Assembly (NCBI GenBank): GCA_934476455.1
Contig: CAKSNY010000005.1
Coordinates: forward strand, 31,455-95,454
DNA length: 64,000 nt
Direction: 5' to 3'
Source of the DNA: an uncultured Clostridia bacterium
GTDB lineage: Bacteria; Bacillota; Clostridia; UMGS1883
Positions 4,282-28,704 of the stretch are shown piece after piece (position 1 is the first letter of the stretch; every line of letters starts with the position of its first letter). The translations under genes were made by a program, and so were the position numbers. The notes beneath the pieces were generated by a model. The model was given only the letters and a program-made list of their open reading frames with translations, was not told the origin of the DNA and did no database searches.

Positions 4282-4292
4282 TGTGCACCCCC

Positions 4293-6965: not shown

Positions 6966-6982
6966 AATCTTTCGCCTCTTTC

Positions 6983-9900
6983 CTATTTAACAATCACCTT
7001 AAATTTGACAAACGTATTTCTGTCTTCCGAAAAGCCCGTAAGGGTGGTTTCCCCCTTTGTATAGGCGGTCAATGTATTCGTTTCAGAATTAAATCTTGCA
7101 ACGCTCGGATTCTGATTATACCAGTTTACCGTCTTATTTTCCGCATCGTCGGGATAAATTGTTACCTTGATTTTTCTTTCTTCATTCTGTGATAAGAAAT
7201 ACTCTTGCTCATCGGTTTTTATCGATTTAACCTTCACACTGTCAAGCGGCACCGCCCATGCATTCCAGGCGGACATTCTTTTTGAAAGAAATCTTCCCGT
7301 ATATTCCTCTATAATATCTGCCGTAAACTGTGCGCCGTTGGGACAATAGTAGGTAACAGAAGAAAGCGTCCCTCTTATTGCGTGCTCCAGAAGGTACAGA
7401 CTGTATGGCATTGCATCATTTTTACCGCACCAGCGAATGTTTTTATATGAAGTACTGTCCTTGAAAATTCTGTTGTGATAATATGCGTCAATTATATTCT
7501 CCGCAATTTTTCTCGCAAGGTCGAGATATGCACCGTTTCCCGTAGTTTCATATAAATATGATGCAATTATGCTGTTCATCGGTGTTTGATTTGTTGTAGA
7601 AAGATTGACACCGGGATTTGTTGAGCCATACTCTCCCCAATCTCCAAGGCCTCGCTTTTCTGCCATATTTCTTAGTGTTTCCCATATAATTCTGCGCTCC
7701 GTCTCTTTATCGGTACGGTGCGCCGTTTTACTGAATACCGTAAGATACGCTAAAAACATCGAGTCCGTTACGCTTTCCTCCCGCATAACGTAATTAATGC
7801 TCCGGTTATAATAATATCCCGGTCTTTCAACAATGAATCCCGTCATATCCACACCGTTTGCCCATATGGGCTTCACCTTGTCGGTGTTGGGGTTATATGC
7901 AATTTTCGCATAATTTGAAAGTCTTTTAAGGTTATAGTTCTCAATTTCCTTTACCCAGTTCTCAAGCAAAAGCTTTTCCTCTGCAGATGCATTTGCTGCT
8001 GCATTGTTAAGCTCGTCAACAAGAATAAATTCTACAGGCTGTGCAGAAAATTCCATATAGCTGGTGCCAAACATTGCATTTGCTTCTCTGCACTGGTTTT
8101 CTGCTTCCTCCTCTGTCATAAGCCCTTTCCTTACAACTTCATCCTTAAACTGAACGTATGCGCGGTCTCCATAGGTTGTCCATGTATATACAGAGTTGTA
8201 TTCAAGTATTTTTTTTATCCATTCGGGGCTGTCTATCGGGTCGGGAAATTCTTTTACGCCCGGGGCGCCGTATGCCGTAGTAAACATATATCCGCCAAGT
8301 CCCGTATTTTCATCGCACACATCTGCAAACTTTTTCCAGAGTCTGCGCGCCCATTTAAGCGCATTTACATCGCCTGATGTTTTGTAAGCCTCTGCCATTA
8401 TGTACAAAAAGTCGTTCGCCGCAAGGCGAAAACCACAGTTTAGTGTAGGAACAAGCTCCGGTCTGTATGCCTCATCATCAAATTCACTGTTCCACCACGA
8501 AAGTTCCGGCTTAGCCGTAAAGCTTCCGTGACGGTTAAAGTCAAACGTATTAAAATCTTTTATATGTATGCTCCACACGCTCTGCGCAATTGTAAGGGGC
8601 AGCGAAGGGTCAACTCTGCCAAAGGCATCAAGATAGACAAAATTATCTTTAAGCTCGTGCGTATTTACATCGGGCTCCGCTTCGTTTGGTGTACCTGTCC
8701 TTAAATCCACAGCCGCATGTCCTCCCCAATACGGCAGGCTGTTCGCAGGGGAAAGATAGTGGTCTACATAATACCGATGAATTTCATCTACTCTGTCTTT
8801 GTACTTATCATCATATATCCAGTTACCTATACCGTCCATCATCCTCATCAGATTTCCTTGCGAGGCAAGGTCTGATAGTACTGCCGGTGCAGGATTTTTT
8901 GTAGTTGTGGGATACGGCCATTCATACGGCATATCGGTAAGGGTATTGTAACCGTCGGATATAAGCGGTGTTCCGTTCCACCTGTCTGCCCCAAGCTTTA
9001 ATATTTCATCTAAAAACTCTGTCAAAATGTTAACTCTGTCATTGTCCTCCATACACGTTTTCCAGTCAAGAAGCATAATATCGCAGCTTTTCGATATCAA
9101 TGGATTTTCCTTGGAGGTTGCTTTAAGAGTTATTTTACTGTTTCTGTAACGGTCAAGCTTTCCGCCCGTTGTTATAATTCCCTTTTCCGGATCAATTGTG
9201 ACCTCCGGCGGAACATTTCCCTCCAGCGACCACGTTACATTACCCTCCATTTCATCTGCGGTCGAATTTAAAAGCGCCGCCTTGTACAAAAATTGGTTGC
9301 TGTCCTCTTTTCTCCAGCAAATTCTGGCAGGGCCCTGTATTTTTATATTATTGAGCGCATCCTCTGTAAGGTCTACCGTCATTGTATAGTTAACAGAGGC
9401 ATCATCTCTGCTCTTTACAAAAATATCAAATCTGGTTGCCGCTGCACTGTCCGTAACCTTCAGTATCAAAGTGTTTCCATCAATACTTGCCTGTATTCCG
9501 GAAACGGGCGCAAACATATAATCAACTGCCGCACCTTCAATCTCAATACCGCCGCTGTCTAAAACTGCCGCAGTATAGGTATAGCTTCTCTCACCCGTTT
9601 TCGGAATACTGATTTTATCGGGACCTTTAAGCTTTATACTTCCCTGCTCCTGACTTGTGTATATTCTGATATTATCAACATAGTGACCCGGAGAATAGCA
9701 TGTATAGCTTGAAAAATAGTCTGCCTTATAATCACTTACCGGAAGATTTTCCGCAATCATTGTGTTTGAAAGAAATACATCTGCTGTCTTTTTTAAGAGA
9801 TCAATCCTTATTTTTAAATCATACCAGCGGTTTGCAAGATAATTTTCCACAATCGTTATCCTTGTAATACCTCCGCTGCGGTATACAATATTTCCGCTTT

Positions 9901-13289: not shown

Positions 13290-15533
13290 TTATTTCTTCA
13301 GGCTGCTTCTGTATGCACTTGGTGTTATGCCCTCATATTTTTTAAATATACGGTTAAATGTTCGTATATGCCCGTAGCCTACCTTCTGCGAAATTTCCAT
13401 AATTGTAAGAGAGGTATTTTCCATCATTTCTTTCGCCTTATGCACTCTGTAGTTATTTATATAGTCTACCATCGTTGTTGTACAGTTCTTTTTAAACAGC
13501 TTTGAAAGATATGCAGGATAAACATCAAAATGATCTCCGATTGAATTTATATTCAGGTTAATATCTTGATAATTCTCCTCTATATAGCGGCATACGGCAT
13601 CAAATTTTGCACTGTCATCAAGCTTATTTTTGGGAGCGCAGCTTTCGTTTGCAAGCTTAATAAGCTTTTGTTGCAGCTCGCCAAGCGTTGCCGATGACAG
13701 AAGCTCCTGCGCATTAAAGCTCTGCTTTCCCATCGTTTCGGGAACTTTTAATACTGCCGCCGAAAGATCAAACATCAGCATTTTAATATTTTCAAGAGAA
13801 AGCGTTTCATCCTTTTTTATACTCTCAAAAAGCTCGTTTATATAGGCTGCGGCATCCTCTTTCTCCCCCATTTGCAAAAGATTGATAAGCTTTTTTTCTT
13901 GTTCAAGGCTGAAATGGTGATCAGATACACTCGTTTTCTTAATTTCACCAAAAAACAGTGATTTTTCTATTGCCCTCATTCTTTTGTACTCCAGCGCATA
14001 CATAGCCTCACTGTATGCACTGCTGAGCATATTTGCACCGCTGTGAACACCCGACACACAAACTGTAAGTTTAAGCGCAAAGTGCTTTTTTATCATAGAA
14101 AGCCCATAATTTATTATTCTTTCAAAGAACTCTATATCTGCCGCTATATGACTTGCTACACATACAATATTATTTTCCACATTCACCACATATCCCGAGC
14201 TTTTTGCCGTAGTAAATATTTCCTCAAAAATATTGCCTATGATAAAGCGTACCTCAAGCTGCTTTTGCTCCTCGCTGAGATTTTCCTCCGGCAAAAATGC
14301 CGCAAACTCTTCCGGATTAAACGCAAAAACAACAATGCTGCCCGGATGCACTTTAATATCATATTCCTTAAATGCTTCCTCCATCTCACCGTGCGGCAAT
14401 GTCCCTTTAAGAATTTGCGCCAAAGCATTTGCGTGCAGACTTAATTTGTATTTTTCAGCAATAGTTTCTAAATTTTTGTTCTTTGTAAATGAATTTTCAA
14501 GTGAGGTTCTTATTTTTTTATACTCGTCTTCATAATCACTCAGTCCGCAAAGCTCCAAAAGCTCTTTAACGGGCTTGTAATCACGCCGCACGAAATACCA
14601 CGCCAGCGCTACGCCTATCAGGATACAAAACAGTATAACGCCTACCGAAACAAGCCTCATTTTAAATATTTCACGGTATAACAGATTTTTATGTCCCACG
14701 GTTACAAGCGTCATACTGATTGTATCATACGTAACACGGTTTACCTGCACAATATTATTTTTCTTTTTCTCCCTTTTTAAAAGCTCTTCCATGCTCCGCG
14801 GTAAATTTTTCTCAGATGCGTCTGCTTCAAGAAGGCCGCCGTTACTTGTAAAAAGATAAATATCACAATCCGTAAGCCATCTGTTATCGGGAATACGTTT
14901 AAAAAAGTCGCTCTTTTTAACAATAACGGAAAAAGATATATTTCCGTAGCGGTGCAGAATATTTTGCGGAAAAGCCATATGGTATGTCATCATTTCGGAA
15001 GGCGTCACACTGCCCACATCCTTAGCGCCGTCAGAAATACTGTAAGTACTGTCTTTTACAAAATGGCTTTTTTTCCACTGCTCATAAGAAATAATATTGC
15101 TGTCAAAATATGTTTCATAGTAAAACTTACTGTCATAAACTCCGTTTTCTGCAATAACCATATCTGTTGCCGGCTGGTAAATATATGCGCGTTCATAATT
15201 ATCGCGGTATATTCTGCTTTCTCCAAACCAGTCTAAAAAGTTTTGCGCCCCTTGTGAATAGATTATTTTATCCTTAGGTACAGATAGGATTTTTTCAAGG
15301 TCATCGTGAAAGGCAACCTCGGCATAATACTTCCTTATACTGACTAAAACATCTTTTACATTATCTGCCGCTATGCTTGTAACCAAATCATTGTTTTCCT
15401 TAAGCTGCTCCGTCATTTTATCGGAATACCCGTCCGTAAGCGTAAGCGAAGATACAATGGGAACAAGCAGTATAATGGCATATGATAAAATCCAAGTTAC
15501 TATTAGTTTTGGTTTTTTCTTGATAAATTTCAT
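13290..15533 (-). CDS. Membrane-spanning AraC-family one-component regulator (YesS-like): TM, extracytoplasmic sensor, TM, cytoplasmic linker, AraC HTH.
   Basis: The C-terminal AraC HTH is YQDINLNINSIGDHFDVYPAYLSKLFKK...YRVHKAKEMMENTSLTIMEISQKVGYGHIRTFNRIFKKYEGITPSAYR. Hydrophobic segments are LIVTWILSYAIILLVPIVSSL and LVSVGVILFCILIGVALAWYFV. The ATG at 15533 is preferred over the GTG at 15539. Confidence 0.85.
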   Translation of the reverse strand: MKFIKKKPKLIVTWILSYAIILLVPIVSSLTLTDGYSDKMTEQLKENNDLVTSIAADNVKDVLVSIRKYYAEVAFHDDLEKILSVPKDKIIYSQGAQNFLDWFGESRIYRDNYERAYIYQPATDMVIAENGVYDSKFYYETYFDSNIISYEQWKKSHFVKDSTYSISDGAKDVGSVTPSEMMTYHMAFPQNILHRYGNISFSVIVKKSDFFKRIPDNRWLTDCDIYLFTSNGGLLEADASEKNLPRSMEELLKREKKKNNIVQVNRVTYDTISMTLVTVGHKNLLYREIFKMRLVSVGVILFCILIGVALAWYFVRRDYKPVKELLELCGLSDYEDEYKKIRTSLENSFTKNKNLETIAEKYKLSLHANALAQILKGTLPHGEMEEAFKEYDIKVHPGSIVVFAFNPEEFAAFLPEENLSEEQKQLEVRFIIGNIFEEIFTTAKSSGYVVNVENNIVCVASHIAADIEFFERIINYGLSMIKKHFALKLTVCVSGVHSGANMLSSAYSEAMYALEYKRMRAIEKSLFFGEIKKTSVSDHHFSLEQEKKLINLLQMGEKEDAAAYINELFESIKKDETLSLENIKMLMFDLSAAVLKVPETMGKQSFNAQELLSSATLGELQQKLIKLANESCAPKNKLDDSAKFDAVCRYIEENYQDINLNINSIGDHFDVYPAYLSKLFKKNCTTTMVDYINNYRVHKAKEMMENTSLTIMEISQKVGYGHIRTFNRIFKKYEGITPSAYRSSLKK

Positions 15534-15677: not shown

Positions 15678-16553
15678 ATGAAATCGAAAATCAAAACATT
15701 TGATATGATTAACATTTTAATTATGTTAATTCTGGTTCCAATTATGCTCTATCCCATATGGCATGTAATTATGGCTTCATTTTCGGAAAGCTCGCTTCTT
15801 ACGGGGCATACGGGACTTATATTAAAGCCGCAAGGGTTTAGTGTTGATTCGTACAGGCTTATGGTTAAAAACCCAATGATTTTTAAGGGTTATCTTAACA
15901 CAATCTTCATTGTTGTAGTGGGCGTAACGCTTAATGTAGCTTTCACGGCGCTTGGTGCATACTGTCTTTCAAGAAAGGGCCTTTACTGGCAAAAACACAT
16001 TATGATGATTATGGTTTTTACGATGTATTTTTCCGGCGGCCTTATTCCCCGTTACCTTATGATTACACAAAGCTATCACATGACAAACTCGTATTGGTCA
16101 TTGATTCTCCCCGGACTTATCAGTACATATAACCTTATTATTATGCGCACCTCCTTTGCGGCACTTCCCGACAGCCTCGAGGAATCAGCGAAGCTTGATG
16201 GTGCAGGCGCAATCAGAATTCTTGTAAGCATAGTAATACCGCTCTCAATGCCGGTTATCGCTGTTATGATACTCTATTACGCGGTGGGACACTGGAATGC
16301 GTGGTTTGATGCAAGTATTTATATCAAAGAACGTGAAAAGTTCCCGCTTCAGCTTATACTTCGTGAAATACTTATTATAAATGATACAAACAGTATGACA
16401 CAGGGCAGCGGTGATGCCTCTGATCAGATGGCAATCGGCGAAACCGTAAAATATGCAGTTATTGTTGTTTCTACACTGCCTATTTTATGCGTCTATCCGT
16501 TTTTACAAAAATATTTCCAAAAGGGCGTTATGATAGGCGCGGTTAAGGGTTAA
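15678..16553 (+). CDS. Carbohydrate ABC transporter permease (LplC/YtcP-like).
   Basis: 291 aa and multi-TM. It carries an EAA-type loop, LEESAKLDGAGAIRILVSIVIPLS. The RBS AGGAGG lies upstream. Confidence 0.9.
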   Translation: MKSKIKTFDMINILIMLILVPIMLYPIWHVIMASFSESSLLTGHTGLILKPQGFSVDSYRLMVKNPMIFKGYLNTIFIVVVGVTLNVAFTALGAYCLSRKGLYWQKHIMMIMVFTMYFSGGLIPRYLMITQSYHMTNSYWSLILPGLISTYNLIIMRTSFAALPDSLEESAKLDGAGAIRILVSIVIPLSMPVIAVMILYYAVGHWNAWFDASIYIKEREKFPLQLILREILIINDTNSMTQGSGDASDQMAIGETVKYAVIVVSTLPILCVYPFLQKYFQKGVMIGAVKG

Positions 16554-16566
16554 GGGAGGAATACCA

Positions 16567-17514
16567 ATGCAGAAAATTAAAAAACGGAATGATATATATA
16601 AGGAAAGCTGGTTTACAACCGTTTCCAAGGATTTTAAGCGTAATCGTACAATTTATTTGTTACTTATACCCGTACTTCTATACTACATTATGTTTCATTA
16701 TGCACCGATGTACGGCTCTGTAATAGCATTTCAGAATTTCAAGCCCCAAAAAGGAATTTTGGGAAGTGATTTTGTAGGCTTGATGCACTTTAAAAATTTC
16801 TTCAACAGCCCGTTTTTCGGAAGAATTCTTTTTAATACACTGAGAATCAGTTTTGCTTCAATTATATTTGGTTTTCCCGCACCGATTATCCTTGCACTGC
16901 TGCTTAACGAGCTGAAATTTCCCCGTTTTGCTAAAGTAGTGCAAAATATTACGTATATGCCGCACTTTATTTCTCTGGTTGTTATTTGCAGCCTTATACG
17001 CGAATTTACGCTTGATACGGGTGTTATAAACTACATACTGGGCTTTTTTGGGTTTACGCCGACATCGCTTCTTAATTTCCCGCAATACTTTACCACAGTT
17101 TACGTTGCATCGGGAATATGGCAGGAAATCGGCTGGGGGTCTATAATTTATCTTGCGGCGCTTTCAGGTCTTGACCCTGCTCTTTACGAGGCTGCAACAA
17201 TTGACGGTGCAAACAGATTTGACCAGATGCTTCACGTTACACTTCCCGGTATATTGCCAACAATTATAATTATGCTTATATTAAAGCTCGGTCAGGTTTT
17301 AAGTGTCGGTTATGAAAAAATTATTCTTCTTTATAACGATAACACAATGAGTGTTGCAGATGTTATCTCAACTTATGTTTATGCAAAAGGACTTTTAGAC
17401 CTTGACTGGAGCTTCAGTTCTGCAGTCGGGCTCTTTAACTCAATAATCAATTTCCTTTTCCTGAACGCAGCAAACTTTATCAGCAAAAAGACAAGCGAAT
17501 ACAGCTTGTGGTAA
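16567..17514 (+). CDS. Carbohydrate ABC transporter permease (LplB/YteP-like).
   Basis: 315 aa and multi-TM. The EAA loop is YEAATIDGANRFDQMLHVTLPGI. The RBS GGGAGGA lies upstream. Confidence 0.9.
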   Translation: MQKIKKRNDIYKESWFTTVSKDFKRNRTIYLLLIPVLLYYIMFHYAPMYGSVIAFQNFKPQKGILGSDFVGLMHFKNFFNSPFFGRILFNTLRISFASIIFGFPAPIILALLLNELKFPRFAKVVQNITYMPHFISLVVICSLIREFTLDTGVINYILGFFGFTPTSLLNFPQYFTTVYVASGIWQEIGWGSIIYLAALSGLDPALYEAATIDGANRFDQMLHVTLPGILPTIIIMLILKLGQVLSVGYEKIILLYNDNTMSVADVISTYVYAKGLLDLDWSFSSAVGLFNSIINFLFLNAANFISKKTSEYSLW

Positions 17515-17527
17515 AAAAATGGGGGGT

Positions 17528-17555
17528 TGTAGCAAAATGGAATCATTTTGCTACA
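17528..17555 (+). terminator. Hairpin downstream of the permease operon.
   Basis: A 12-bp stem: TGTAGCAAAATG, loop GAAT, CATTTTGCTACA. The trailing T-tract is weak (CCACCTTTATTT). Confidence 0.45.
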
Positions 17556-17625
17556 CCACCTTTATTTGGTGTATTTAGACGTGGAAATAGCCCCCCTGCT
17601 TTGCGTAATACAAGGCAGGGGGTTA

Positions 17626-17937
17626 TTAGTATAAAAAGGAAGGAAATGTCACTATTTTGTTTCCTCTGTTGATATTAAGCACTTTCGCAATAGGACCAAG
17701 TTCGTGGGTAGGGTAATTGTCACAGTTTCTGTTGAGATAGTTTCTAAGCCTGTAATGACGATTTTCTATTCCGCCTGCAATTTCATCACAAAGATAATGA
17801 TTATCCCCTCCGCTGCAGTGAACAACTTATCCAAATATCACCGTACGTGCCATATTGAGAGCTGTCAACTCCTTCTGCCCATAACAGCAATTCTCAAGCA
17901 TCAGTATTCCGCGCTGTCCCATACCTATACATCCTAA
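17626..17937 (-). pseudogene. Internal fragment of a Gfo/Idh/MocA-family (GH109-like / YteT-like) oxidoreductase gene with an in-frame stop.
   Basis: The minus-strand translation is LGCIGMGQRGILMLENCCYGQKELTALNMARTVIFG*VVHCSGGDNHYLCDEIAGGIENRHYRLRNYLNRNCDNYPTHELGPIAKVLNINRGNKIVTFPSFLY*. The motifs MLENCCYG..EL..LNM and YPTHxLGP...NINRGN are typical of this family. The TAA at 17827-17829 interrupts the frame. Only about 100 of roughly 450 aa are present. Confidence 0.55.
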
Positions 17938-20881: not shown

Positions 20882-21794
20882 CTTAATTAAAATAATTTTT
20901 AAAGCAATCCTTTTTTATAATTGTGAATGACTTAGCATGGGGCTGCAGACATATTCTTGGATTGACAACCTAAAAACAGTCTAAGAATATTGAACCGATT
21001 CTCCTCTTGTGCTTTTATTATTGCATGGCAACTTTCCAATATTAATTATATTTATTAAGTATTAGTGATTTTAAAGCGACATATAGATACTACATATAGT
21101 ATTATAATTGTAAATTATCTGTAAATAAGCTTTACAACCACAATATATTGTGTTAGAATACACTTGTTAATTGATTTGTGCGTGGGGTTCCCCCGGATTG
21201 TTTTTTCAATCCTATCATACGAGATGTAATGGTTGTAGTTAATGTAAACAGCATAGTTTTAAATACCGCCGTTATTACTTGCAAAGACAGTACAAAAAAT
21301 AAAACAAGTATGCGTACATATCCGTTGCTTGATGATATTGAAGAAATACTGTTGAGGATAAAAAAGCAGCAGGACGAATACAAAAAATTATTCGGCAGCT
21401 GTTATCAGGAAAGCGGATATGTATTTACAAAAGAGGATGGCTCTATGCGCCGTCCGAGTTACCCAACTCAGATGCTGACAAAAACCTTAAAGAAAAATAA
21501 CATGCCGCACCTGCGCTGGCATGACCTTCGGCACAGTTGTGCCGGCATTCTTATAATGAAAGGCTGGCAGATGAAAGAAATTTCAGGATGGTTGGGGCAC
21601 GCTGATGTAGGAACGACAATGAATATTTACGGTCACTTAAATCTTGACCACAAACGCAAATTGGGCAGCACTTTAAACGGTTTATTTGATAAAAATACAC
21701 CTGAGCGGTTAGAAATCGGTTAGAAATCTGAGTTTTTGAAGAATTTCAAAGCCAACGCAAAAAACCGTCTAACCCTATTGGTTAAGCGGTTTTT
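20882..21794. mobile_element. Decayed remnant of an earlier integrative element: an AT-rich non-coding stretch, a truncated integrase and a terminator.
   Basis: There is an abrupt switch to AT-rich sequence right after the conserved promoter motif. It has the same int-terminator-att arrangement as the intact element to its right. Confidence 0.5.
21240..21723 (+). pseudogene. Truncated tyrosine recombinase (phage-integrase family). Only the C-terminal catalytic part remains.
   Basis: TKNKTSMRTYPLLDDI...HLRWHDLRHSCAGILIMKGWQMKEISGWLGHADVGTTMNIYGHL aligns with the C-terminal half of the intact Int (PKTASSKRTIPLLPDI...HALRHAFAT...LGHSSIALTADIYSHV). The N-terminal arm-binding and core-binding region (about 200 aa) is missing. 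Confidence 0.75.
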
Positions 21795-21841
21795 ACTGGT
21801 GAGCCATCGGAGATTCGAACCCCGGACAACTTGATTAAAAG
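21795..21841 (-). repeat. Distal att direct repeat: the displaced 3' portion of tRNA-Lys.
   Basis: ACTGGTGAGCCATCGGAGATTCGAACCCCGGACAACTTGATTAAAAG is 47/47 identical to 28627-28673. Confidence 0.9.
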
Positions 21842-21954
21842 AAATATATAATGGATTTTATTAAATATATATTACCTATAATTTGATTAATGATTTATTT
21901 CTATTTTAATTTGTTTTATTATTTACTAAATTTTAATTTTTACTTTTATGCTTT

Positions 21955-21977
21955 TTGTGGTCAGCATTGTGGTCAAA
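21955..21977 (+). repeat. Tandem TTGTGGTCA pair (12-bp period) near the distal end of the element. Candidate integrase arm-type sites.
   Basis: The sequence is TTGTGGTCAgcaTTGTGGTCAAA. The same tandem pair occurs at 28536-28558. Confidence 0.5.
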
Positions 21978-22036
21978 ATAAAATACCTATTCTTTTATCC
22001 TTTGCATAATAATATATACAAATAGTATAGTTTGAG

Positions 22037-22065
22037 TTGACAATTAGACGGATTTGATATATACT
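22037..22065 (+). promoter_or_regulatory. Sigma-70/SigA-type promoter for the cargo operon.
   Basis: TTGACA (22037-22042), N17, TATACT (22060-22065). Confidence 0.6.
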
Positions 22066-22108
22066 ATATGTATATTGAATATATACTAATTGTACGGAGG
22101 TTTTGTAT

Positions 22109-23767
22109 ATGAATACATCTGAAAACAAACCATATAAAAGCACTTGTTTATCATGTGGTAAGGAATGGTACTACACAAAAAAGGATTTAAGGCAATCAGA
22201 AATAAATCGTGGCACGAACGAAAGCCGTAAAAGCCTTGGTAATTTAACTTCTATGTTCGGCAAAAATAAAGTATCGGATATTATAAACAACGTTGATGAA
22301 CTTCCAGAAATAGCACATAAATGTCCTGCGTGCGGCTCAAAAAATGTATCTCTGGAATTTATAGGCGAAAAGAAAAAACTTAGCCGTAAGGCAATTACGG
22401 GCATAATATCGGGGTCTGTCGCTTTGCTGGTTATAATTATACTGTCAATAGCTATTCCCGTATCTATACACATTAAAAATAATACGGAGCAGGTTTTATC
22501 AAATATAACCTTTGAGGGTGTAGACAATAATTCCGCTCCGCTTGCCGCATATGATTTAAAATTATTCAAAGAGCAATCTACATATACAGTTGTTGCAACG
22601 CTAAAGAAAAACAGTACAGAACCGCAAGAGGGGTATTTTGAGTTTAATATATCATTGTTTGATGAAAATGGGAAACGCATTAAATCAGACCATATTAATA
22701 CTATGCCGACACCCGATAATAATACATATTCTTTGCTTAAATACGGAAACGAGGAATACCTTGAACACAATATTTATATCATAGATAAATCAAAGCCTGT
22801 CAAAGTCGTATTTTCGGATATTAAAGAGCTTGACAAGACTTATTTTATAAGTTATATGTTAGAACAGTCAAAAAGCTATTTAGCAAAGCAAGATACGGAA
22901 AACTCAAAAAAATATGCGTTGGAAGTATTAAAGTATGACCCCGAAAATATTGAAGCAAAAGCACTATCGGGACAAATTGCACTTAATACCCCTACCCCCG
23001 AACCAAAGGCAAACAATGTTATTATCGGCTCTGATAAAGATAGTGTACGAAAGATATTTGACGGCTATAAAGAAACTAAATCTATTATGTCAGACAACGC
23101 ACTTGACTTTGAAAATAATGACTTGCTTATAACTGTATATTTTAACGGCGAAGACAAGGCAGACGGTGTACTGTTTATGCAAAACAGTTTTGACGGTGTA
23201 GACACTCTGACGGGCGAGGGGTCATATATAAGCAAGCATTATGATGAGCTTGTAGCTATGGCAACAAATGACCCTAATGTTAAAATCGAAACCGACTTGA
23301 CTAAATATAACAGTCAAGGGGTTAAAAAATATCCTATGGAAATATACATAGGAAATATACCTGAAAGCAAACCAAAAAGCACAGAAAATACGGACAGCGG
23401 ATATGCACAATTCAATCCAGAGACAGGACATTTTGAAAAAACAGACGAAAAAACAGAGCCGAAACAGCAATCCAACAATACGGAAACAAAACCGAAAAGC
23501 GAGTTTTCCTATTGTCTGACAAGCGGTATTGTTCAAGGGGTTAAATTATATTCCGCTCCGAATAATGATAGCTATGTAGGTACTATTACATCATTCAGCA
23601 ATGATATATTAGACGAGCGAGGGAAAAAGACTAAAGCTGTTTATATAAGCGGCGGTAAAAATGACGGTTGGTATAAAAGAAGCGAGGTAGGACAGCTTTA
23701 TGTGCGTAATGATGACCCTTGCTTACCGTCTGGAAGATATGTAGCGGAAAGTATGGGTATAGACTAA
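22109..23767 (+). CDS. Cargo membrane protein of unknown function (about 552 aa): cytoplasmic CxxC...CxxC zinc ribbon, 1 TM, large extracytoplasmic region.
   Basis: ATG 22109 lies 8 nt after GGAGG. The zinc-ribbon motif is CLSCGKEWYY...HKCPACGSKN. The TM segment is ITGIISGSVALLVIIILSIAIPV. The region contains a TPR-like stretch (YLAKQDTENSKKYALEVLKYDPENIEAKAL) and a Pro/Thr/Lys-rich linker. The C-terminal module (GVKLYSAPNNDSYVGTI...GWYKRSEVGQLYV) may be SH3b-like. Confidence 0.7.
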   Translation: MNTSENKPYKSTCLSCGKEWYYTKKDLRQSEINRGTNESRKSLGNLTSMFGKNKVSDIINNVDELPEIAHKCPACGSKNVSLEFIGEKKKLSRKAITGIISGSVALLVIIILSIAIPVSIHIKNNTEQVLSNITFEGVDNNSAPLAAYDLKLFKEQSTYTVVATLKKNSTEPQEGYFEFNISLFDENGKRIKSDHINTMPTPDNNTYSLLKYGNEEYLEHNIYIIDKSKPVKVVFSDIKELDKTYFISYMLEQSKSYLAKQDTENSKKYALEVLKYDPENIEAKALSGQIALNTPTPEPKANNVIIGSDKDSVRKIFDGYKETKSIMSDNALDFENNDLLITVYFNGEDKADGVLFMQNSFDGVDTLTGEGSYISKHYDELVAMATNDPNVKIETDLTKYNSQGVKKYPMEIYIGNIPESKPKSTENTDSGYAQFNPETGHFEKTDEKTEPKQQSNNTETKPKSEFSYCLTSGIVQGVKLYSAPNNDSYVGTITSFSNDILDERGKKTKAVYISGGKNDGWYKRSEVGQLYVRNDDPCLPSGRYVAESMGID

Positions 23768-23810
23768 TAAAATAATTTAATTTATAAAATGATTAAAAGA
23801 GGATATTTAT

Positions 23811-23993
23811 ATGATGAGTTTTTTCTTGCCGCTGTTGTTGGCAATAGCTATACCTATTTTAATGATTGTCGGCGGCTTTAAATCTATGGAGCAAAAAGCC
23901 AATTCGCCCTATGGGTGCGGTTGCGGTGGCTGTCTTGTAATGGTGCTGGGGATTTTATTTCTGCTTGCCGTACTTGGTTTTCTTTTTATCTAA
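23811..23993 (+). CDS. Small two-TM membrane protein (60 aa) with a CGCGGC loop motif.
   Basis: MMSFFLPLLLAIAIPILMIVGGFKSMEQKANSPYGCGCGGCLVMVLGILFLLAVLGFLFI. The RBS AAGAGGA lies upstream. It is followed directly by a terminator. Confidence 0.55.
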   Translation: MMSFFLPLLLAIAIPILMIVGGFKSMEQKANSPYGCGCGGCLVMVLGILFLLAVLGFLFI

Positions 23994-23999
23994 CACAGA

Positions 24000-24036
24000 G
24001 CATACCAATGGCTAAAAACCTTGGTATGCTTTTTCT
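24000..24036 (+). terminator. Rho-independent terminator of the cargo operon.
   Basis: Stem GCATACCAA pairs with TTGGTATGC, followed by TTTTT. Confidence 0.8.
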
Positions 24037-24420
24037 ATACCTACTACCTGTCCTTGTTTTCCGAAAAATAAAATTTTAATATAAAAGGTATCAGACTGTT
24101 AAAGGGTATGAGTAAGCTATATTGTATATAAGTCTAATTTGTATATTCGTCTATTGGTATTATTGGTAATACGGCTTCTATGGCTATTTAAAGACATTTT
24201 TATTTTACCGCTCTTTTGTTAAAATTTTTCACTTGTATGTATTATGATACTTATATAATTAAAGATATATATTCTTTGCCGCCCTTAATTTGACTTGTGA
24301 GAGAGAATAATATAAAAATACACGGTAAAAGTTTTTGATTTACGGAGCGGAAATTTAAAAATGCCGCTTATACCTGATATAAGTATAGTAAACTGTACTG
24401 CCAGTTATTACGTGTATTAT

Positions 24421-24449
24421 TTGACAACATCAAATTTCCCTGATATAAT
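24421..24449 (+). promoter_or_regulatory. Perfect-consensus promoter for the recombinase-like/XRE operon.
   Basis: TTGACA (24421-24426), N17, TATAAT (24444-24449). Confidence 0.7.
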
Positions 24450-24486
24450 ATACTAAAAAATTTAACCTTAGACATGAGAGGTCGGC

Positions 24487-25254
24487 ATGGAAGTTTACGC
24501 TTATTGCAACACATTTAAAGGTGGGTTGTCAGACGAGAAAAAATTAAATAAGTATGCGTTAGCCCACGACTATGATATAGTCCATACGTTTTATGATAAC
24601 AGCATATATAGCCGCATGGGTATATACAGATTGTTAAATAAAATTGAACATACAAGTATTAAAACAATAATCGTATATTCATTAGACCATTTATGGGGTG
24701 ATGAAGAATTACACTATATGCTTGTCTTAAAATTAAAATCAATCGAAGCAAATATAAAATGTGTCACAGAGCCGCAATACAGCATATATACGGACGATAT
24801 AACAAAAGAATGTAATTCTATATTAAAGTATCTAAATAGGCTTCTGCCGTCCGTTTTATCCGCAAAAATGGCACGGGGACGGACAGAAAAAGCAGAAAAC
24901 GGATATAAACCTAATGGTCGCATACCGTTAGGATATAAAAGAAATCAAAGCGGAAATATTGTTATTGATGATAAAGAAGCCGAAATTGTAAGACTTATTT
25001 TTAAACAATATCTATACTGTAATTCGCTTGAACAGCTTAGACTTTACCTTTCCGAACATCATATTACAAGCCGCCGAAACATACCTTTTAAGCGTGAAAC
25101 ATTACGTTATATATTGCATAATGATTTTTATATTGGTATTGTTACGTATGGTCATAAAAAGATACACGGACACCATAAAGCGATTATAGATAAACGAATG
25201 TTTTATAACGTGCAAAATGCACTTTCAAGTAATAGAAACTGTACTAATAAATAA
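24487..25254 (+). CDS. Serine-recombinase-like protein (resolvase-fold plus 'recombinase' DNA-binding domain). The catalytic residues are substituted and the zinc-ribbon/coiled-coil C-terminus is absent.
   Basis: The N-terminus VYAYCNTFKG sits where Y-x-R-V-S-T is expected (R to Y, S to N). LDHLWG sits where LDRLSR is expected. The recombinase-domain pattern is present: GRIPLGYKR...IDDKEAEIVRLIFKQYL...LRYILHNDFYIGIV...HHKAIIDKRMFYNVQ. The protein ends at 255 aa. Confidence 0.7.
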   Translation: MEVYAYCNTFKGGLSDEKKLNKYALAHDYDIVHTFYDNSIYSRMGIYRLLNKIEHTSIKTIIVYSLDHLWGDEELHYMLVLKLKSIEANIKCVTEPQYSIYTDDITKECNSILKYLNRLLPSVLSAKMARGRTEKAENGYKPNGRIPLGYKRNQSGNIVIDDKEAEIVRLIFKQYLYCNSLEQLRLYLSEHHITSRRNIPFKRETLRYILHNDFYIGIVTYGHKKIHGHHKAIIDKRMFYNVQNALSSNRNCTNK

Positions 25255-25330
25255 CCTTATCTATACTTAAAATATCTTCATAAAACAATCCTTTTAGTAT
25301 AAACTATATATACAAGGAGTTGTATTTATT

Positions 25331-25741
25331 ATGAAGATAAAAAAGCAAAGGGGTAGACAGGTGAGTAATAGAGGTCGAACACCTATTACAGAACGTAAAC
25401 CGCATACAAAAGAAATTGATTTAAAGCTTGACCGCATAGGAAATATAATCAGAGAAGCACGGCTAAATCAAGGCTTGACACAAGAGGAATTAGCGGAGCT
25501 TGTGGACGTTACACCTGCCTATATCGGGCATATAGAACGCAATCAGCGGAGTTTTTCCCTGCAAACGCTTGTAAAGCTTGTTACAGAGCTTGACATAGAT
25601 ATGAACTATCTTTTTTCCGAAAGTGCTCCCACAAGTGAGGAACAGATTGTTATAGACTTTAAACAGCTTATAAAAGGAAAACCGCTCCAGACACAAGAAG
25701 CGGTTTTAGACATAGTGCGCACGGCATTAAAACATCTTTAA
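25331..25741 (+). CDS. XRE-family helix-turn-helix transcriptional regulator.
   Basis: IREARLNQGLTQEELAELVDVTPAYIGHIERNQRSFSLQTLVKLVTELDIDMNYLF. The RBS AAGGAG lies upstream. Confidence 0.85.
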   Translation: MKIKKQRGRQVSNRGRTPITERKPHTKEIDLKLDRIGNIIREARLNQGLTQEELAELVDVTPAYIGHIERNQRSFSLQTLVKLVTELDIDMNYLFSESAPTSEEQIVIDFKQLIKGKPLQTQEAVLDIVRTALKHL

Positions 25742-26670
25742 ATTTTAATTATTTGTTCTAAATATTCATCTTTTGAAAGACTGCCCTTTACGGCTTCATC
25801 ACGTAATGCGGTAGCCTTTTTTATTTGTATATCCAATTCCTCTTTTGTAATTTTCCCCGTCCTTTTCCGTGCGTAAAGACGTTTATATGCCCTTTGGTAT
25901 TCGCCTATAATCGGGTCTTTTAAGGTTTTGTTTTTAAAGCTGTTTACCGCTCCGACTTCTTGACAGGTTTTTGATGTACCCGAAATTTTACGGTCACAGT
26001 ATTTTTTATTATAATTTCCCTTTACCGCAAACAGCCTACCGCAGTTTTCGCATTTTCTCACGAATATATTATATTGCAACATTTTCATAAATTCAAGGTA
26101 CAATAACGATGATATATCGGAAGCAATATATTCCTCACAAAGCGTTAAATCATTAGACACCGTATATACAATTTCTGCCTTGCCGTTTAATTCGTGAGAA
26201 TAATTAAGATACCTTTCCAATGGGTTAAACTTCTCATTTTCGTCCTGTTTTAACAAACAGGCATTAACCGCCGCCCTATATTCTTTTTGAAGCTTTACAA
26301 GGTCAAATATATCAAACAATTTCATATAGTCTATATCGTGAAGTGCAGAATATTCAACCTCATATGCGTATGGGTGTTCGGTGGCTTTTAAAGCGTCATA
26401 TAAAGCCATTCGGACATACTTTTCCTCATCAGACATATTGTTATCAATTTGAAGAATGATACCTTTGTAACCTTTATACCCTCTGCCTGTAGGTCGGCAT
26501 TTTCTGATATTTTCAGCTTTAAGCTGTTTAATTATTTCTACTTCTTTTTGGTATGTGCTTAAATCTAATTCCAAAAAATCAAGCAAGAGAGTGCCTATTT
26601 CAAATTCCTCGTTTGTTATAGGTAAATACATATGTTTTTTATCTATTGTAATGTATTTGCTTACATTCAT
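25738..26670 (-). CDS. Hypothetical 310-aa protein with a C-terminal Cys-rich zinc-ribbon-like motif.
   Basis: The motif is RKCENCGRLFAVKGNYNKKYCDRKISGTSKTCQEVGA. The C-terminal tail is basic. The RBS AAAGGAG lies upstream. Its 3' end overlaps the XRE gene's stop by 4 nt, in convergent orientation. Confidence 0.65.
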   Translation of the reverse strand: MNVSKYITIDKKHMYLPITNEEFEIGTLLLDFLELDLSTYQKEVEIIKQLKAENIRKCRPTGRGYKGYKGIILQIDNNMSDEEKYVRMALYDALKATEHPYAYEVEYSALHDIDYMKLFDIFDLVKLQKEYRAAVNACLLKQDENEKFNPLERYLNYSHELNGKAEIVYTVSNDLTLCEEYIASDISSLLYLEFMKMLQYNIFVRKCENCGRLFAVKGNYNKKYCDRKISGTSKTCQEVGAVNSFKNKTLKDPIIGEYQRAYKRLYARKRTGKITKEELDIQIKKATALRDEAVKGSLSKDEYLEQIIKI

Positions 26671-26712
26671 TCTATACAGCTCCTTTTATCAAATACCTAA
26701 TCTTATAATCCT

Positions 26713-26755
26713 ATTATATATTATACTTGACAAGTTGTCAATAGTGTGCTATAAT
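26713..26755. promoter_or_regulatory. Back-to-back divergent consensus promoters that share a palindromic -35 region.
   Basis: Plus strand: TTGACA (26727-26732), N17, TATAAT (26750-26755), reading toward xis-int. Minus strand: TTGACA (complement of 26736-26741), N17, TATAAT (complement of 26713-26718), reading toward the 310-aa gene. The core is the palindrome TTGACAAGTTGTCAA. Confidence 0.7.
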
Positions 26756-26812
26756 AAATATACAATATATATTTATTAATATCAATTACCTATTATAAGG
26801 AGTTGTATTATT

Positions 26813-27019
26813 ATGAAAACATTAAAAAGAAAAATCAGAACTTTGGACGAATTGCCAGCGGTTATGACTGTTGATGATGTTATGGAAATATTGAGAATAT
26901 CGAAAGCAAATGCTTACAAGATTATGGCTTCTGATAATTTTCCGACATTAAGAATAGGAAAGCGTGTTTTAGCGGAAAAAACAGCATTTACAAACTGGCT
27001 TAGAGGTTTGACTCTTTAA
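26813..27019 (+). CDS. xis: Excisionase-type (MerR-like winged-helix) DNA-binding protein.
   Basis: 68 aa. The sequence MTVDDVMEILRISKANAYKIMASDNFPTLRIGKRVLAEKTAFTNWL matches that type. It lies immediately upstream of int. Confidence 0.75.
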   Translation: MKTLKRKIRTLDELPAVMTVDDVMEILRISKANAYKIMASDNFPTLRIGKRVLAEKTAFTNWLRGLTL

Positions 27020-27068
27020 TAAAATATATATTGCAGTATTTATCGAAGAAATTAAGGAAGTGTTTATT

Positions 27069-28196
27069 GTGGCAAAAAAGAGAGCGAACGGAGAGGGAAG
27101 TATAAGGCAAAGAAAAGACGGACGTTGGGAGGGGCTTTACTCTATCAATAATAAGCGTAAAAGCGTATATGGCAAAACACAAGAGGAAGTAAGAAAAAAA
27201 TTAAATAAGGTGTTAAATGATATTGATAACGGAATATATATTGAGGATTGCCGTATAACAATGGGCGAATGGCTTCACACTTGGTTATATGATTATAAAA
27301 AGAATACAGTCAAGCAAAAGACTTTTGAGGGGTATGAAGCCCTTGTCAACAAACATCTTATTCCCGCATTTTCAAAAATACAACTAAAAAAATTATCAGT
27401 AGATAACGTACAAAGATTTATTAATCAGAAGATAAGCGAGGGGCTTTCATCAAGGACGATACGATATATAAATACTCTGCTTCATAGTGCGTTGAAACAG
27501 GCAATAAATAACGGTCTTATTGTGCGCAATGTGGCAGAAGCGGTAACGCTCCCAGAGCGCAAGCAAAAAGACAGAAAATTTTTAACGGCAGAGGAACAGG
27601 AACGCTTTATAAAATGTTTGTCAGATGAAAAATCTGGCTTTGTATTACTTTTTGCGTTATCCACAGGTTTAAGGCGCGGTGAGCTTCTGGCTCTTAGGTG
27701 GTCTAATTATGACAGTCAAAAGAAGTATATCACCGTAACGGAAAATTTAAGCCGATTAAAAGGGGCAGACGGAAAATCTCATTTAACTTTTACCACTCCT
27801 AAGACGGCTTCAAGCAAGCGAACTATACCGCTTTTGCCAGATATAGCGAACAAGTTAAATATACATAGACAACAACAGGCAGTAAATCGTCTTAAAGCAG
27901 GTCAGTTGTGGGAAGATAATGATTTGATTTTCTGTACTGATTTTGGAAAACCTCTTGAGCCGAGAAACTTATTTCGTATTCTTGACAGAGTATGCGATAA
28001 AGCTGAAATAGCGCATATAAATGTACACGCTTTACGGCACGCATTTGCTACACGTGCATTAGAAAACGGAATACCGTTAAAGGTTGTTTCGGATATGCTG
28101 GGTCATAGCAGTATAGCACTTACGGCAGATATTTATTCTCATGTGTCAGTTGAAACAATGGAAAATGAGTTGCAAAAGCTGTCAAACGCATTTTAA
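27069..28196 (+). CDS. int: Tyrosine site-specific integrase (Tn916/phage-integrase family).
   Basis: GTG 27069 lies 8 nt after TAAGGAAG (the ORF track gives 27060). The N-terminal arm-binding-type segment is RKDGRWEGLYSINNKRKSVYGKTQEEVRKKLNKV. The catalytic residue pattern is TGLRRGELLAL...HALRHAFAT...LGHSSIALTADIYSHV. Confidence 0.9.
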   Translation: MAKKRANGEGSIRQRKDGRWEGLYSINNKRKSVYGKTQEEVRKKLNKVLNDIDNGIYIEDCRITMGEWLHTWLYDYKKNTVKQKTFEGYEALVNKHLIPAFSKIQLKKLSVDNVQRFINQKISEGLSSRTIRYINTLLHSALKQAINNGLIVRNVAEAVTLPERKQKDRKFLTAEEQERFIKCLSDEKSGFVLLFALSTGLRRGELLALRWSNYDSQKKYITVTENLSRLKGADGKSHLTFTTPKTASSKRTIPLLPDIANKLNIHRQQQAVNRLKAGQLWEDNDLIFCTDFGKPLEPRNLFRILDRVCDKAEIAHINVHALRHAFATRALENGIPLKVVSDMLGHSSIALTADIYSHVSVETMENELQKLSNAF

Positions 28197-28209
28197 AGGA
28201 GAAATCAAA

Positions 28210-28488
28210 ATGAATGAATATGAAAAAATTTTAAATAATTTTTTGGCTGAAAATAAATACAAAGCTATTTTAGATTTTGCAAAACATAATAGGAAGTATA
28301 GAAAATTAAAAGACATAAACACACAAAACAGCATTATAATATCCAAAACACTGAAAAAAGATGATTTAGATAAATTTGAAAACTTTAAAGAAAATGTATA
28401 CAGTCTGTATGATATGGAAAGTGATATGCTATATATTCAAGGTTATAGGGATTGTATAAAGCTTTTAAAAATCATTGGTTTAATATAG
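28210..28488 (+). CDS. Small hypothetical protein (92 aa) downstream of int.
   Basis: ATG 28210 is preceded by AAGGAGAAA. The sequence is MNEYEKILNNFLAENKYKAILDFAKHNRKYRKLKD... and I recognise no motif in it. Confidence 0.5.
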   Translation: MNEYEKILNNFLAENKYKAILDFAKHNRKYRKLKDINTQNSIIISKTLKKDDLDKFENFKENVYSLYDMESDMLYIQGYRDCIKLLKIIGLI

Positions 28489-28535
28489 CCGCCGCCCGTT
28501 CTGATTTTATATCGGAATGGGTGATTTTTTGTCTG

Positions 28536-28558
28536 TTGTGGTCAAAATTGTGGTCAAA
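28536..28558 (+). repeat. Tandem TTGTGGTCAAA pair (12-bp period) near the tRNA-proximal end of the element. Candidate arm-type sites.
   Basis: TTGTGGTCAAAaTTGTGGTCAAA. It matches the pair at 21955-21977 in the same orientation. Confidence 0.5.
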
Positions 28559-28587
28559 GCGTTTTTAGGGGAAGAAAAAAAGGACAC

Positions 28588-28625
28588 GAAAAAACGGCTT
28601 AAACCGTATAGGTAAGCCGTTTTTT
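28588..28625. terminator. Element-encoded bidirectional terminator abutting the tRNA-Lys 3' end.
   Basis: Stem ACGGCTTA (28594-28601) pairs with TAAGCCGT (28613-28620). It is flanked by an A-run and a T-run. On the minus strand it lies directly downstream of the tRNA operon. Confidence 0.7.
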
Positions 28626-28626
28626 A

Positions 28627-28673
28627 ACTGGTGAGCCATCGGAGATTCGAACCCCGGACAACTTGATTAAAAG
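28627..28673 (-). repeat. Proximal att direct repeat, inside the functional tRNA-Lys.
   Basis: It is identical to 21795-21841. Identity ends at the 5' edge of the anticodon loop (28673). Confidence 0.9.
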
Positions 28674-28704
28674 TCAAGTGCTCTGCCGACTGAGCTAATG
28701 GCCC
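28629..28704 (-). tRNA. trnK: tRNA-Lys (anticodon UUU), CCA encoded.
   Basis: The reverse complement is GGGCCATTAGCTCAGTCGGCAGAGCACTTGACTTTTAATCAAGTTGTCCGGGGTTCGAATCTCCGATGGCTCACCA. It folds as a cloverleaf with anticodon loop CTTTTAA. Confidence 0.9.

Follow-up and report, generated by a model that had tools for sequence, protein, structure and literature searches.

A 64,000-nt stretch of contig CAKSNY010000005.1 from an uncultured Clostridia bacterium (GenBank assembly GCA_934476455.1), hereafter the window, contains at positions 21795-28673 a small integrative element inserted in the gene for tRNA-Lys(UUU). Coordinates are positions in the window unless another locus is named; the features of the element, whose interior measures 6.8 kb, are collected in Table 1. 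The element is delimited by a perfect 47-bp direct repeat, ACTGGTGAGCCATCGGAGATTCGAACCCCGGACAACTTGATTAAAAG, which starts with ACTGGTGAGCC and ends with ATTAAAAG. Exactly two copies of this repeat occur in the window, where 100 shuffles gave an expectation of 0, and no third copy of the core was found within it. If one mismatch is allowed, the repeat grows to 52 nt (21790-21841 and 28622-28673). The right copy lies within an intact tRNA-Lys(ttt) gene, detected by both ARAGORN and Rfam, that heads a Lys-Gln-His-Arg-Gly cluster, and the repeat corresponds to nt 32-76 of this tRNA plus 2 nt downstream, so that it starts at the 5' edge of the anticodon loop and reaches the CCA end. The GC content of the element interior is 33.6%, compared with 43.8% in the remaining window. 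An initial annotation, made by a model from the sequence alone, had described perfect 47-bp repeats around an AT-rich segment and had placed them on the tRNA-Lys 3' end up to the 5' edge of the anticodon loop, and the exact repeat search, the tRNA mapping and the composition agree with it on all of these points. The element is thus inserted site-specifically into the 3' part of tRNA-Lys(UUU) and re-supplies nt 32-76 together with a terminator. The latter is the hairpin with a T-run in the right arm, which terminates the tRNA operon after insertion.

The element carries eight genes, all of which had been listed in the initial annotation and were confirmed by open reading frame (ORF) and family scans: (i) two cargo genes for a 552-aa membrane protein and a 60-aa membrane peptide, (ii) a serine-recombinase homolog and an XRE-family regulator, (iii) a 310-aa DUF6076 protein encoded on the opposite strand, and (iv) an integration module consisting of an excisionase (Xis), a tyrosine integrase (Int), and a 92-aa ORF. 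Int matches positions 1-170 of the 172 positions of PF00589, so a full-length integrase stands beside the tRNA gene, as expected for a tRNA island, and its nearest solved relatives in the PDB include chains deposited as 'Int protein' (6emy) and Xer recombinases. The xis gene is located directly upstream of int in all cases. Homologs of the 92-aa ORF, 31-40% identical to it, accompany other int modules.

Table 1. Features of the tRNA-Lys element and of its left border, ordered by position in the window
Feature	Position	Strand	Description
Integrase remnant left by an earlier occupant, outside the element	21178-21723	+	C-terminal half; 30% identity to the element Int; partial PF00589
Distal att core, attL	21795-21841		Partial tRNA-Lys copy (nt 32-76 plus 2 nt); no second core copy in empty-site contig L010
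Left-arm sequence resembling the xis promoter/operator (26750-26796)	21836-21882		74% identity over 47 nt; 81% in L019
Left-arm TTGTGGTCA doublet, putative arm-type integrase sites	21955-21975	+	12-bp spacing; 5 copies observed in the window, expectation 0.26
Promoter-like site before the cargo gene	22037-22065	+	TTGACA-17-TATACT, 11/12; consensus match only
Membrane-protein cargo gene, 552 aa	22109-23767	+	N-terminal CxxC...CxxC zinc ribbon; predicted transmembrane helix aa 93-125
Cargo peptide, 60 aa	23811-23993	+	ORF; two transmembrane helices; Cys-rich loop CGCGGC; 95-100% conserved in close relatives
Conserved non-coding block, ~370 bp	23994-24365		86-95% identical in L019, L020, L034, L037, L039
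Promoter of the serine-recombinase homolog/XRE operon	24421-24449	+	Sigma-70-type with extended -10; 12/12 matches
Catalytically dead, truncated serine-recombinase homolog, 255 aa	24487-25254	+	PF07508 6.8e-21; PF00239 4e-7; phrog_95
XRE-family helix-turn-helix (HTH) regulator, 136 aa	25331-25741	+	PF01381 2.8e-16; phage-repressor PHROGs
DUF6076 protein, 310 aa	25738-26670	-	PF19553 8.7e-29; 100.9 bits against a 23.5-bit Pfam cut-off
Switch region, DUF6076-xis spacer, 142 bp	26671-26812		Two divergent promoters, each with 12/12 matches
Excisionase (AlpA-type HTH_17 Xis), 68 aa	26813-27019	+	PF12728 4.9e-7; weak TIGR01764 'excise'; weak PF05930
Tyrosine integrase (Int), 375 aa	27069-28196	+	PF00589 2.4e-28; SAM-like N-terminal domain; phrog_1 1.5e-80
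ORF contiguous with int, 92 aa	28210-28488	+	DUF6809-like; phrog_28204; conserved in close relatives
Right arm	28493-28626	+	Terminator 28493-28523; TTGTGGTCA doublet 28536-28556; hairpin and T-run 28583-28626
tRNA-proximal att core, attR	28627-28673		Within intact tRNA-Lys(ttt) 28629-28704, minus strand

Both arms of the element contain a doublet of the motif TTGTGGTCA, and these doublets are best read as arm-type integrase sites. The geometry of the right arm is repeated at the ends of the neighboring integrase remnant and of a phage-like neighbor in another locus, L003. The left arm also contains a sequence similar to the region of the xis promoter, and this likeness suggests that one protein may bind both the att arm and the promoter of the excision genes.

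The integrase remnant lies just beyond the left repeat and was overlooked in the initial annotation. It is followed by a terminator hairpin (21760-21794) and is still present in L010, a contig with an empty tRNA-Lys site described below. Since the remnant is kept in the empty site, it derives from an element that occupied this tRNA-Lys before, and it lies outside of the present one.

The same target is also seen in a virus. L052 (PP511381.1, Dulem virus 51), an 8.1-kb circular inovirus from lemur faeces, contains at 5171-5227 a 57-bp, 95% match to the tRNA-Lys 3' sequence, and this attP-like match adjoins the inovirus recombinase gene. Thus, the tRNA-Lys core is an att site common to unrelated mobile elements.

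Empty site, second context, and recent movement

The initial annotation had proposed a comparison with related genomes for an empty tRNA-Lys site, and such a site was found in L010, a contig from a Hadza metagenome. The flanks of the element in the window match L010 at 99.98% identity over 6795 bp on the left and at 99.73% over 6327 bp on the right, and between them L010 has one core copy and an intact tRNA-Lys without the element. This precise empty site provides the presence/absence polymorphism expected for a tRNA island, and the 7-kb segment is not fixed and syntenic in all relatives, the outcome that the initial annotation had named as counting against its reading.

A second context of nearly the same element was found in four independent assemblies, L003-L006, where it is 99.74% identical over 6877 bp. 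In these loci both core copies, each a partial tRNA-Lys, flank the element, and there is no full tRNA. The left flank in L003 encodes a 2749-aa MuF-type polyvalent protein (LPD3, MTase, MuF_C, and LPD38 domains), followed by ATAGTCA repeats and a terminator, and the right flank encodes an Amidase_2 endolysin and a holin (the positions for this second context in L003 are 1298-9547, 9693-9733, 16525-16565, and 16736-17758). All four assemblies stop at the same point within the holin gene. Homologs of both flanks, at 78-82% identity, occur on a single IMG/VR phage contig. Two arrangements are compatible with this structure, a circular cointegrate and a tandem array formed by a phage-like element, the element under study, and a prophage; the tandem array is favored because a related prophage terminates with an amidase gene and then a partial tRNA, matching the right flank of L003. 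A scan of JGI metagenomes for the L003 context gave only contigs of 1-2 kb, and related contigs with an amidase belong to other phages.

More distant copies, 96-97% identical to the element, are present in L019, L035, and L036, where the flanks are unrelated to those in the window and the tRNA clusters are only 84-88% identical. In addition, representatives of five different GTDB species encode DUF6076 proteins that are 97-99% identical. Since closely similar copies are found between unrelated flanks and nearly identical DUF6076 proteins in five species, the element has moved recently between species. Taken together, the element is intact and recently mobile both within and between species.

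Contigs of ~6.85 kb in the Logan collection were considered as candidate excised circles and rejected: their ends stop 30 nt into each repeat, which is what k=31 assembly breaks would produce. A variant of the chromosomal site of the window, L001, has a 180-bp deletion (14217-14396) that splits the DUF6076 gene into ORFs of 195 aa and 57 aa.

A family of elements with a common core and switch region

To describe related elements, we traced homologs of the cargo and of DUF6076, and mapped the repeats and tRNA genes in the obtained loci by script. Comparison of these loci revealed that the element is one member of a previously undescribed family with a DUF6076/XRE/Xis/Int core and conserved cis elements. 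The family members are found in metagenome-assembled genomes (MAGs) of uncultured gut Clostridia, are 5.1-7.2 kb in size, and target the 3' end of tRNA-Lys(ttt), tRNA-Lys(ctt), or tRNA-Met(cat) with repeats of 43-46 bp. XRE (+), DUF6076 (-), Xis (+), and Int (+) occur together in every locus long enough to show all of them; XRE itself is present in every family locus that extends far enough.

The putative arm sites are conserved in the same manner. The TTGTGGTCA doublets are located 70-115 bp inside the ends in nearly all members, mostly at both ends, and doublets at both ends are retained even in relatives with only ~40% identity in DUF6076 and across the three tRNA targets. In a few members one end has a doublet and the other a single exact copy, and no doublet is present in the incomplete locus L024. 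L034 and L037 (7090-13100) carry a third type of integrase (43% identity) and have doublets at both ends; neither a tRNA nor a long direct repeat was found in these two loci.

The members appear to be built from two exchangeable parts. The left half of the element, comprising the cargo, XRE, and DUF6076 genes, is 85-99% identical at the protein level among relatives in which it is paired with three integrase modules only 42-44% identical to their counterpart in the window. The switch region between DUF6076 and xis is duplicated at the module junction in L020 and L039. A conserved left half, divergent integrase modules, and a duplicated switch region together indicate that the modules are swapped by recombination at the switch.

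The neighborhood of a tRNA-Met member contains other mobile DNA. To the left of this element, in L020 (6841-9489) and also in L021 and L022, a fragment of Phage_Mu_F is found together with an IS3-type transposase pair and two barstar genes in tandem. This neighbor looks like the MuF-toxin/immunity end, now decayed, of a prophage located at the same att site.

The switch region contains two divergent sigma-70-type promoters with perfect matches, a leftward one for DUF6076 (26741 to 26713) and a rightward one for xis-int (26727-26755), that overlap by 15 bp. The -35 boxes of both promoters form a palindrome, CTTGACAAGTTGTCAA, which is the sole copy in the window, and a perfect 11-bp inverted repeat (26752-26778) covers the start of the xis transcript. 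This architecture is kept family-wide, distant members included, and as predicted from the promoter layout it is that of mutually exclusive DUF6076 and xis-int promoters.

DUF6076 marks the family as its signature gene and probably has a regulatory function. At its N-terminus the protein has a DFLELDL motif, four invariant cysteines (C207, C210, C225, and C236) form a zinc ribbon, and the C-terminal part is a basic helical bundle. Its AlphaFold2 (AF2) model is confident (pLDDT 85.7, pTM 0.77). When this model was compared with the PDB, no meaningful fold match was obtained, HUH, Rep_trans, and MobV-like folds included; sequence profiles gave no PDB match either, and a comparison with BFVD yielded one weak match with a TM value of 0.34. 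An exhaustive profile search for DUF6076 identified 2759 clusters in which the C-terminal ~140 residues are conserved and the N-termini vary, as would suit a DNA-binding part that is joined to various sensor or effector domains. No mention of DUF6076 was found in the literature searched.

Several members of DUF6076 belong to phages, where they are placed in regulatory or early regions. One that scores above the Pfam threshold stands beside an XRE repressor, an antirepressor, and an endolysin in a 45.9-kb IMG/VR phage, another is located near a primase-helicase in a second viral contig, and a further one occurs in the Ruminococcus phage NatCom_38182. In L054, DUF6076 is divergently oriented from a Xis-like gene. 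The scan of IMG/VR with the DUF6076 alignment recovered only distant phage-borne homologs.

Cargo genes, non-coding block, and serine-recombinase homolog

The 552-aa cargo protein is predicted to have its zinc ribbon on the cytoplasmic side of the membrane and the rest of the chain outside of the cytoplasm. Only 25 homologs were identified, all from metagenomes or MAGs, and their alignment shows a modular build. The N-termini come in alternative forms and the Ig-like beta-sandwich is optional; helical repeats, an invariant core (aa ~305-416), and an SH3-like C-terminus make up the rest. The invariant core reappears in distant family members. The AF2 model of this protein has a pLDDT of 72, and Foldseek gave only generic beta-sandwich matches; no match was found in Pfam, PHROG, NCBIfam, or PADLOC, nor by profile search of PDB sequences. 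We propose that the product most likely serves a surface or phage-exclusion-type conversion function and that it is rapidly reshuffled. The initial annotation had suggested phage exclusion or defense as a possible function of the cargo and had proposed a scan for defense systems. In the scan that was run with PADLOC, the cargo had no match, and the only matches in the element were generic HTH matches for XRE and a weak match for Xis (E 0.0026, mad1).

The 60-aa peptide encoded downstream has no significant family match. In L007 (1980-2255) and at the equivalent sites in L035, L037, and L039, it is replaced by a 91-aa zinc-ribbon protein that is 47% identical to aa 7-84 of the 552-aa protein and represents a partial duplication of its cytoplasmic module.

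The cargo genes are followed by a conserved non-coding block that contains a terminator hairpin (23999-24035) and a ~20-nt CCGC-containing motif at 24185, at 24256, and, inverted, at 24345. This block is 86-95% identical among relatives whose cargo genes are only ~85% identical, and it is kept among close relatives and not family-wide. It has no Rfam match, the only Rfam matches in the element being to tRNA, and the z-score of its RNA fold (-0.58) is not significant. The block is the best candidate for a cis site of transfer or replication (oriT, ori, or pac).

The serine-recombinase homolog consists of the resolvase N-terminal and 'Recombinase' domains, and lacks the zinc ribbon and the coiled coil. 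Compared with the gamma-delta resolvase, it carries the substitutions R8Y, S10N, R68H, and R71G. Thus, the 255-aa protein does not qualify as a large serine recombinase, as the catalytic serine and arginines are gone and the C-terminus is short. Its gene was considered as a decaying pseudogene, and this was rejected: a homolog in L040 (10561-11325, minus strand), which is a distant member of the family, is 46% identical and of similar length, and has lost the same catalytic residues. The shared losses identify the protein as a conserved pseudo-enzyme, and it appears to be an exapted pseudo-recombinase. Since the gene is missing from L019, L020, and L025, it is dispensable.

Missing functions and routes of transfer

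A search of the eight ORFs against Pfam, PHROGs, NCBIfam, and PADLOC detected no relaxase, coupling protein, type IV secretion system (T4SS), Rep, primase, terminase, capsid, or catalogued defense gene. This is in line with the initial annotation, which had recognized no replication, conjugation, relaxase, or virion genes, and the databases likewise gave no match of the cargo to a known relaxase or replication module. The hallmarks of the major classes of mobile elements were then compared with these eight ORFs: (i) the relaxase, coupling protein, and T4SS of an integrative and conjugative element (ICE) are missing from all of them; (ii) the relaxase of a canonical integrative mobilizable element (IME) is missing, no relaxase or Rep family having been matched, and an oriT is not recognizable from sequence; (iii) terminase, portal, capsid, tail, and lysis genes of a prophage are missing, and the PHROG matches are restricted to the integration and regulation categories; (iv) a cis-mobilizable element (CIME), which keeps att sites and loses its integration genes, is not consistent with intact int and xis genes. 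With no relaxase, T4SS, or virion genes, the earlier description of the element as neither an ICE, an IME, nor a prophage, and possibly a minimal hitch-hiking island, fits the evidence. A comparison of the whole element DNA with INPHARED phages and PLSDB plasmids gave matches only to the tRNA core. The element is best classed as a non-autonomous, helper-dependent integrative island: as it has no recognizable transfer, replication, or packaging gene, its movement between cells presumably requires a helper.

On balance, we consider it probable that the element is an intact, recently active, non-autonomous tRNA-Lys integrative element with a DUF6076/XRE switch and helper-dependent transfer. In the suggested mechanism, Int would bind the TTGTGGTCA doublets in both arms and the core in the anticodon stem and loop, and together with the HTH_17 Xis it would excise the element as a 6832-bp circle. 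The overlapping DUF6076 and xis-int promoters would exclude each other and so govern excision, with DUF6076 and XRE serving as putative maintenance regulators. In the integrated state, the cargo operon would be expressed from its own near-consensus promoter.

Several points weigh against this reading. Neither an excised circle nor an attP junction was observed, the ~6.85-kb Logan contigs being explained by assembly breaks at the 47-bp repeat. The roles proposed for DUF6076 and XRE in regulation, for the arm sites, and for the cargo are deduced from position and conservation, the defense scan of the cargo with PADLOC was negative, and DUF6076 could be an unrecognized replication or mobilization protein. 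With respect to the helper, scans of IMG/VR with the DUF6076 and cargo alignments and the comparison with INPHARED gave no family element, although such collections select for viral hallmark genes, which are missing here. The L003 locus can be read either as a tandem array or as a circular cointegrate. Moreover, tandem arrays arise at any shared tRNA hot spot (PMC5704250), with or without co-transfer, and the adjacency of phages is therefore circumstantial.

Within the reading of a helper-dependent tRNA-Lys element, the route of transfer may tentatively be tied to temperate phages that share the tRNA site. Tandem accretion at this site would be followed by co-excision, co-packaging, or lateral transduction. 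We regard this route as possible, at somewhat less than even chance; the points that lean toward it are circumstantial and include the phage-type regulators, the phrog_28204 ORF, the phage-like flanks of L003, and the MuF and barstar neighbors in L020-L022. A more specific version, which we hold to be unlikely, makes DUF6076/XRE/Xis/Int elements an ultra-minimal class of hitchers that insert at a shared att core beside or into the attP of temperate phages and are then co-excised and co-packaged. As a master regulator of a type not recognized before, DUF6076 would couple excision to the helper cycle, and the dead recombinase would act as a DNA-architectural or directionality factor.

The features of the element were also compared with those of known systems. 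It works most like the relaxase-less IMEs known as mobilizable genomic islands (MGIs; e.g. MGIVflInd1), which have a tyrosine integrase and a directionality factor, lack a relaxase, coupling protein, and T4SS, and undergo site-specific, helper-dependent movement (PMC5704250). The combination of integrase and directionality factor without conjugation proteins is found in the present element as well. However, MGIs measure 18-33 kb, reside in Gammaproteobacteria, and have an oriT recognizably similar to that of the helper ICE (PMC5704250), whereas the element has phage-type regulatory genes and revealed no helper or oriT similarity in PLSDB. The PICMIs (phage-inducible chromosomal minimalist islands) of Vibrionaceae are likewise very small and have int, an AlpA/Xis-type HTH gene, a small gene contiguous with int, further genes without known function, and no capsid-remodeling genes, but they are defined by int, alpA, a primase (DUF3987/DUF5906), and integration next to fis (PMC10803314). 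Of these features, the element has the integrase (PF00589) and the AlpA-type regulator (PF12728, weak PF05930), and lacks the primase and the fis site.

Tycheposons of Prochlorococcus resemble the element by a tyrosine recombinase acting at the 3' part of tRNA genes, partial tRNA repeats, cargo, and hot-spot arrays, and differ from it by a lineage-specific integrase, inward-facing int, and primase/helicase replication hallmark genes (bioRxiv 10.1101/2020.12.28.424599). In the element we observed the tRNA-targeting integrase, the partial repeats, and the cargo, whereas int (+) faces outward to the tRNA, a replication module is missing, and neither the host phylum nor the core genes are the same. 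Tycheposons have no dedicated transfer machinery, and vesicles or capsids have been proposed as their vehicles (bioRxiv 10.1101/2020.12.28.424599). The tRNA-Lys arrays of CIMEs, IMEs, and ICEs in Firmicutes, such as the IME_Sag2603_tRNAlys composite, share the target and the tandem arrangement, in which decayed or intact neighbors have a common core, as do the integrase remnant in the window and the L003 locus, but CIMEs have lost the integrase (PMC5704250), whereas here it is intact and the neighbors are phage-like rather than conjugative.

Staphylococcus aureus pathogenicity islands (SaPIs) and other phage-inducible chromosomal islands (PICIs) are phage-derived and non-autonomous, and have an integrase, an excisionase, and divergent regulators acting as a switch; at 10-15 kb, they also contain pri-rep and, for packaging, terS, cpm, or ppi, and the 6.8-kb element has none of these. 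The lysogeny modules of temperate Firmicutes phages contain int, xis, an XRE-type regulator, and a constitutive membrane or surface moron of the sie/ltp type. This is the same mix of genes as in the element, and DUF6076 occurs in such modules of real phages. The element differs in being a free-standing mobile unit with two att arms of its own.

Two other routes of transfer have to be weighed. The element might be a minimalist phage satellite, in which a helper flips the DUF6076/xis switch, the element is excised, amplified, and packaged as concatemers in full-size capsids, and the cargo acts on rival phages. Its 6.8-kb size, int, AlpA/Xis-type HTH gene, and int-contiguous gene recall the PICMIs, satellites of ~6 genes that are packaged as 8-mer concatemers (PMC10803314). 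In addition, the regulatory genes are of phage type, the conserved non-coding block may hold a pac or cos site, and phage DNA adjoins the element in several loci. The satellite explanation is nevertheless improbable, because the element has neither a primase nor Rep, the defining core gene of PICMIs and PICIs, and neither terS nor a capsid-remodeling gene; its DNA similarity to INPHARED is limited to the tRNA core, the IMG/VR scans gave no family member, and no candidate helper was identified.

Alternatively, the element could be a relaxase-less IME of the MGI type, mobilized by an ICE or a conjugative plasmid that acts on an oriT mimic, perhaps within the 370-bp non-coding block. Islands with only an integrase and a directionality factor and with a helper-like oriT are documented, and tRNA-Lys is an IME site in Firmicutes (PMC5704250). 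The gene content, int and xis without a relaxase, conforms to this scheme, as does a conserved non-coding block with direct and inverted repeats. We find such mobilization doubtful, since the similarity to PLSDB plasmids is restricted to the tRNA core, no conjugative element was seen beside any family member and the identifiable neighbors are phage-like, phage families account for the matches of the regulatory genes and of the ORF contiguous with int, and the non-coding block is conserved in close relatives only. Finally, an immobile leftover, that is, a lysogeny module that remained when a prophage or ICE decayed and that has both att repeats by chance, would account for the lysogeny-like gene set (int, xis, repressor-type regulators, and a membrane 'moron'), the adjacent decayed integrase fragment, and the L001 variant with its DUF6076 deletion, but it is highly implausible and already contradicted by the perfect repeats, the empty site in a chromosome >99.7% identical, the copies with the same boundaries and 96-99.7% identity found elsewhere and in further species, and the compact architecture, which together with the arm sites and the switch is conserved over three tRNA targets in relatives with as little as 40% protein identity.

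The presumably helper-dependent tRNA-Lys element described here introduces no new principle. It exemplifies, in a minimal and evidently successful form, a class that is poorly understood. Many islands contain an integration module and no visible means of transfer, and how such islands move is a long-standing gap (PMC5704250). The present family is an unusually small and clean case, with about eight genes, defined ends, arm sites, a conserved promoter switch, and recent interspecies spread. DUF6076, found in thousands of clusters including those of real phages, gains its first genomic context and a testable role, and the element provides an example of a serine recombinase that is conserved yet catalytically dead. 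If the cargo should provide a surface or phage-exclusion function, these elements would feed strain-level variation in abundant uncultured gut bacteria.

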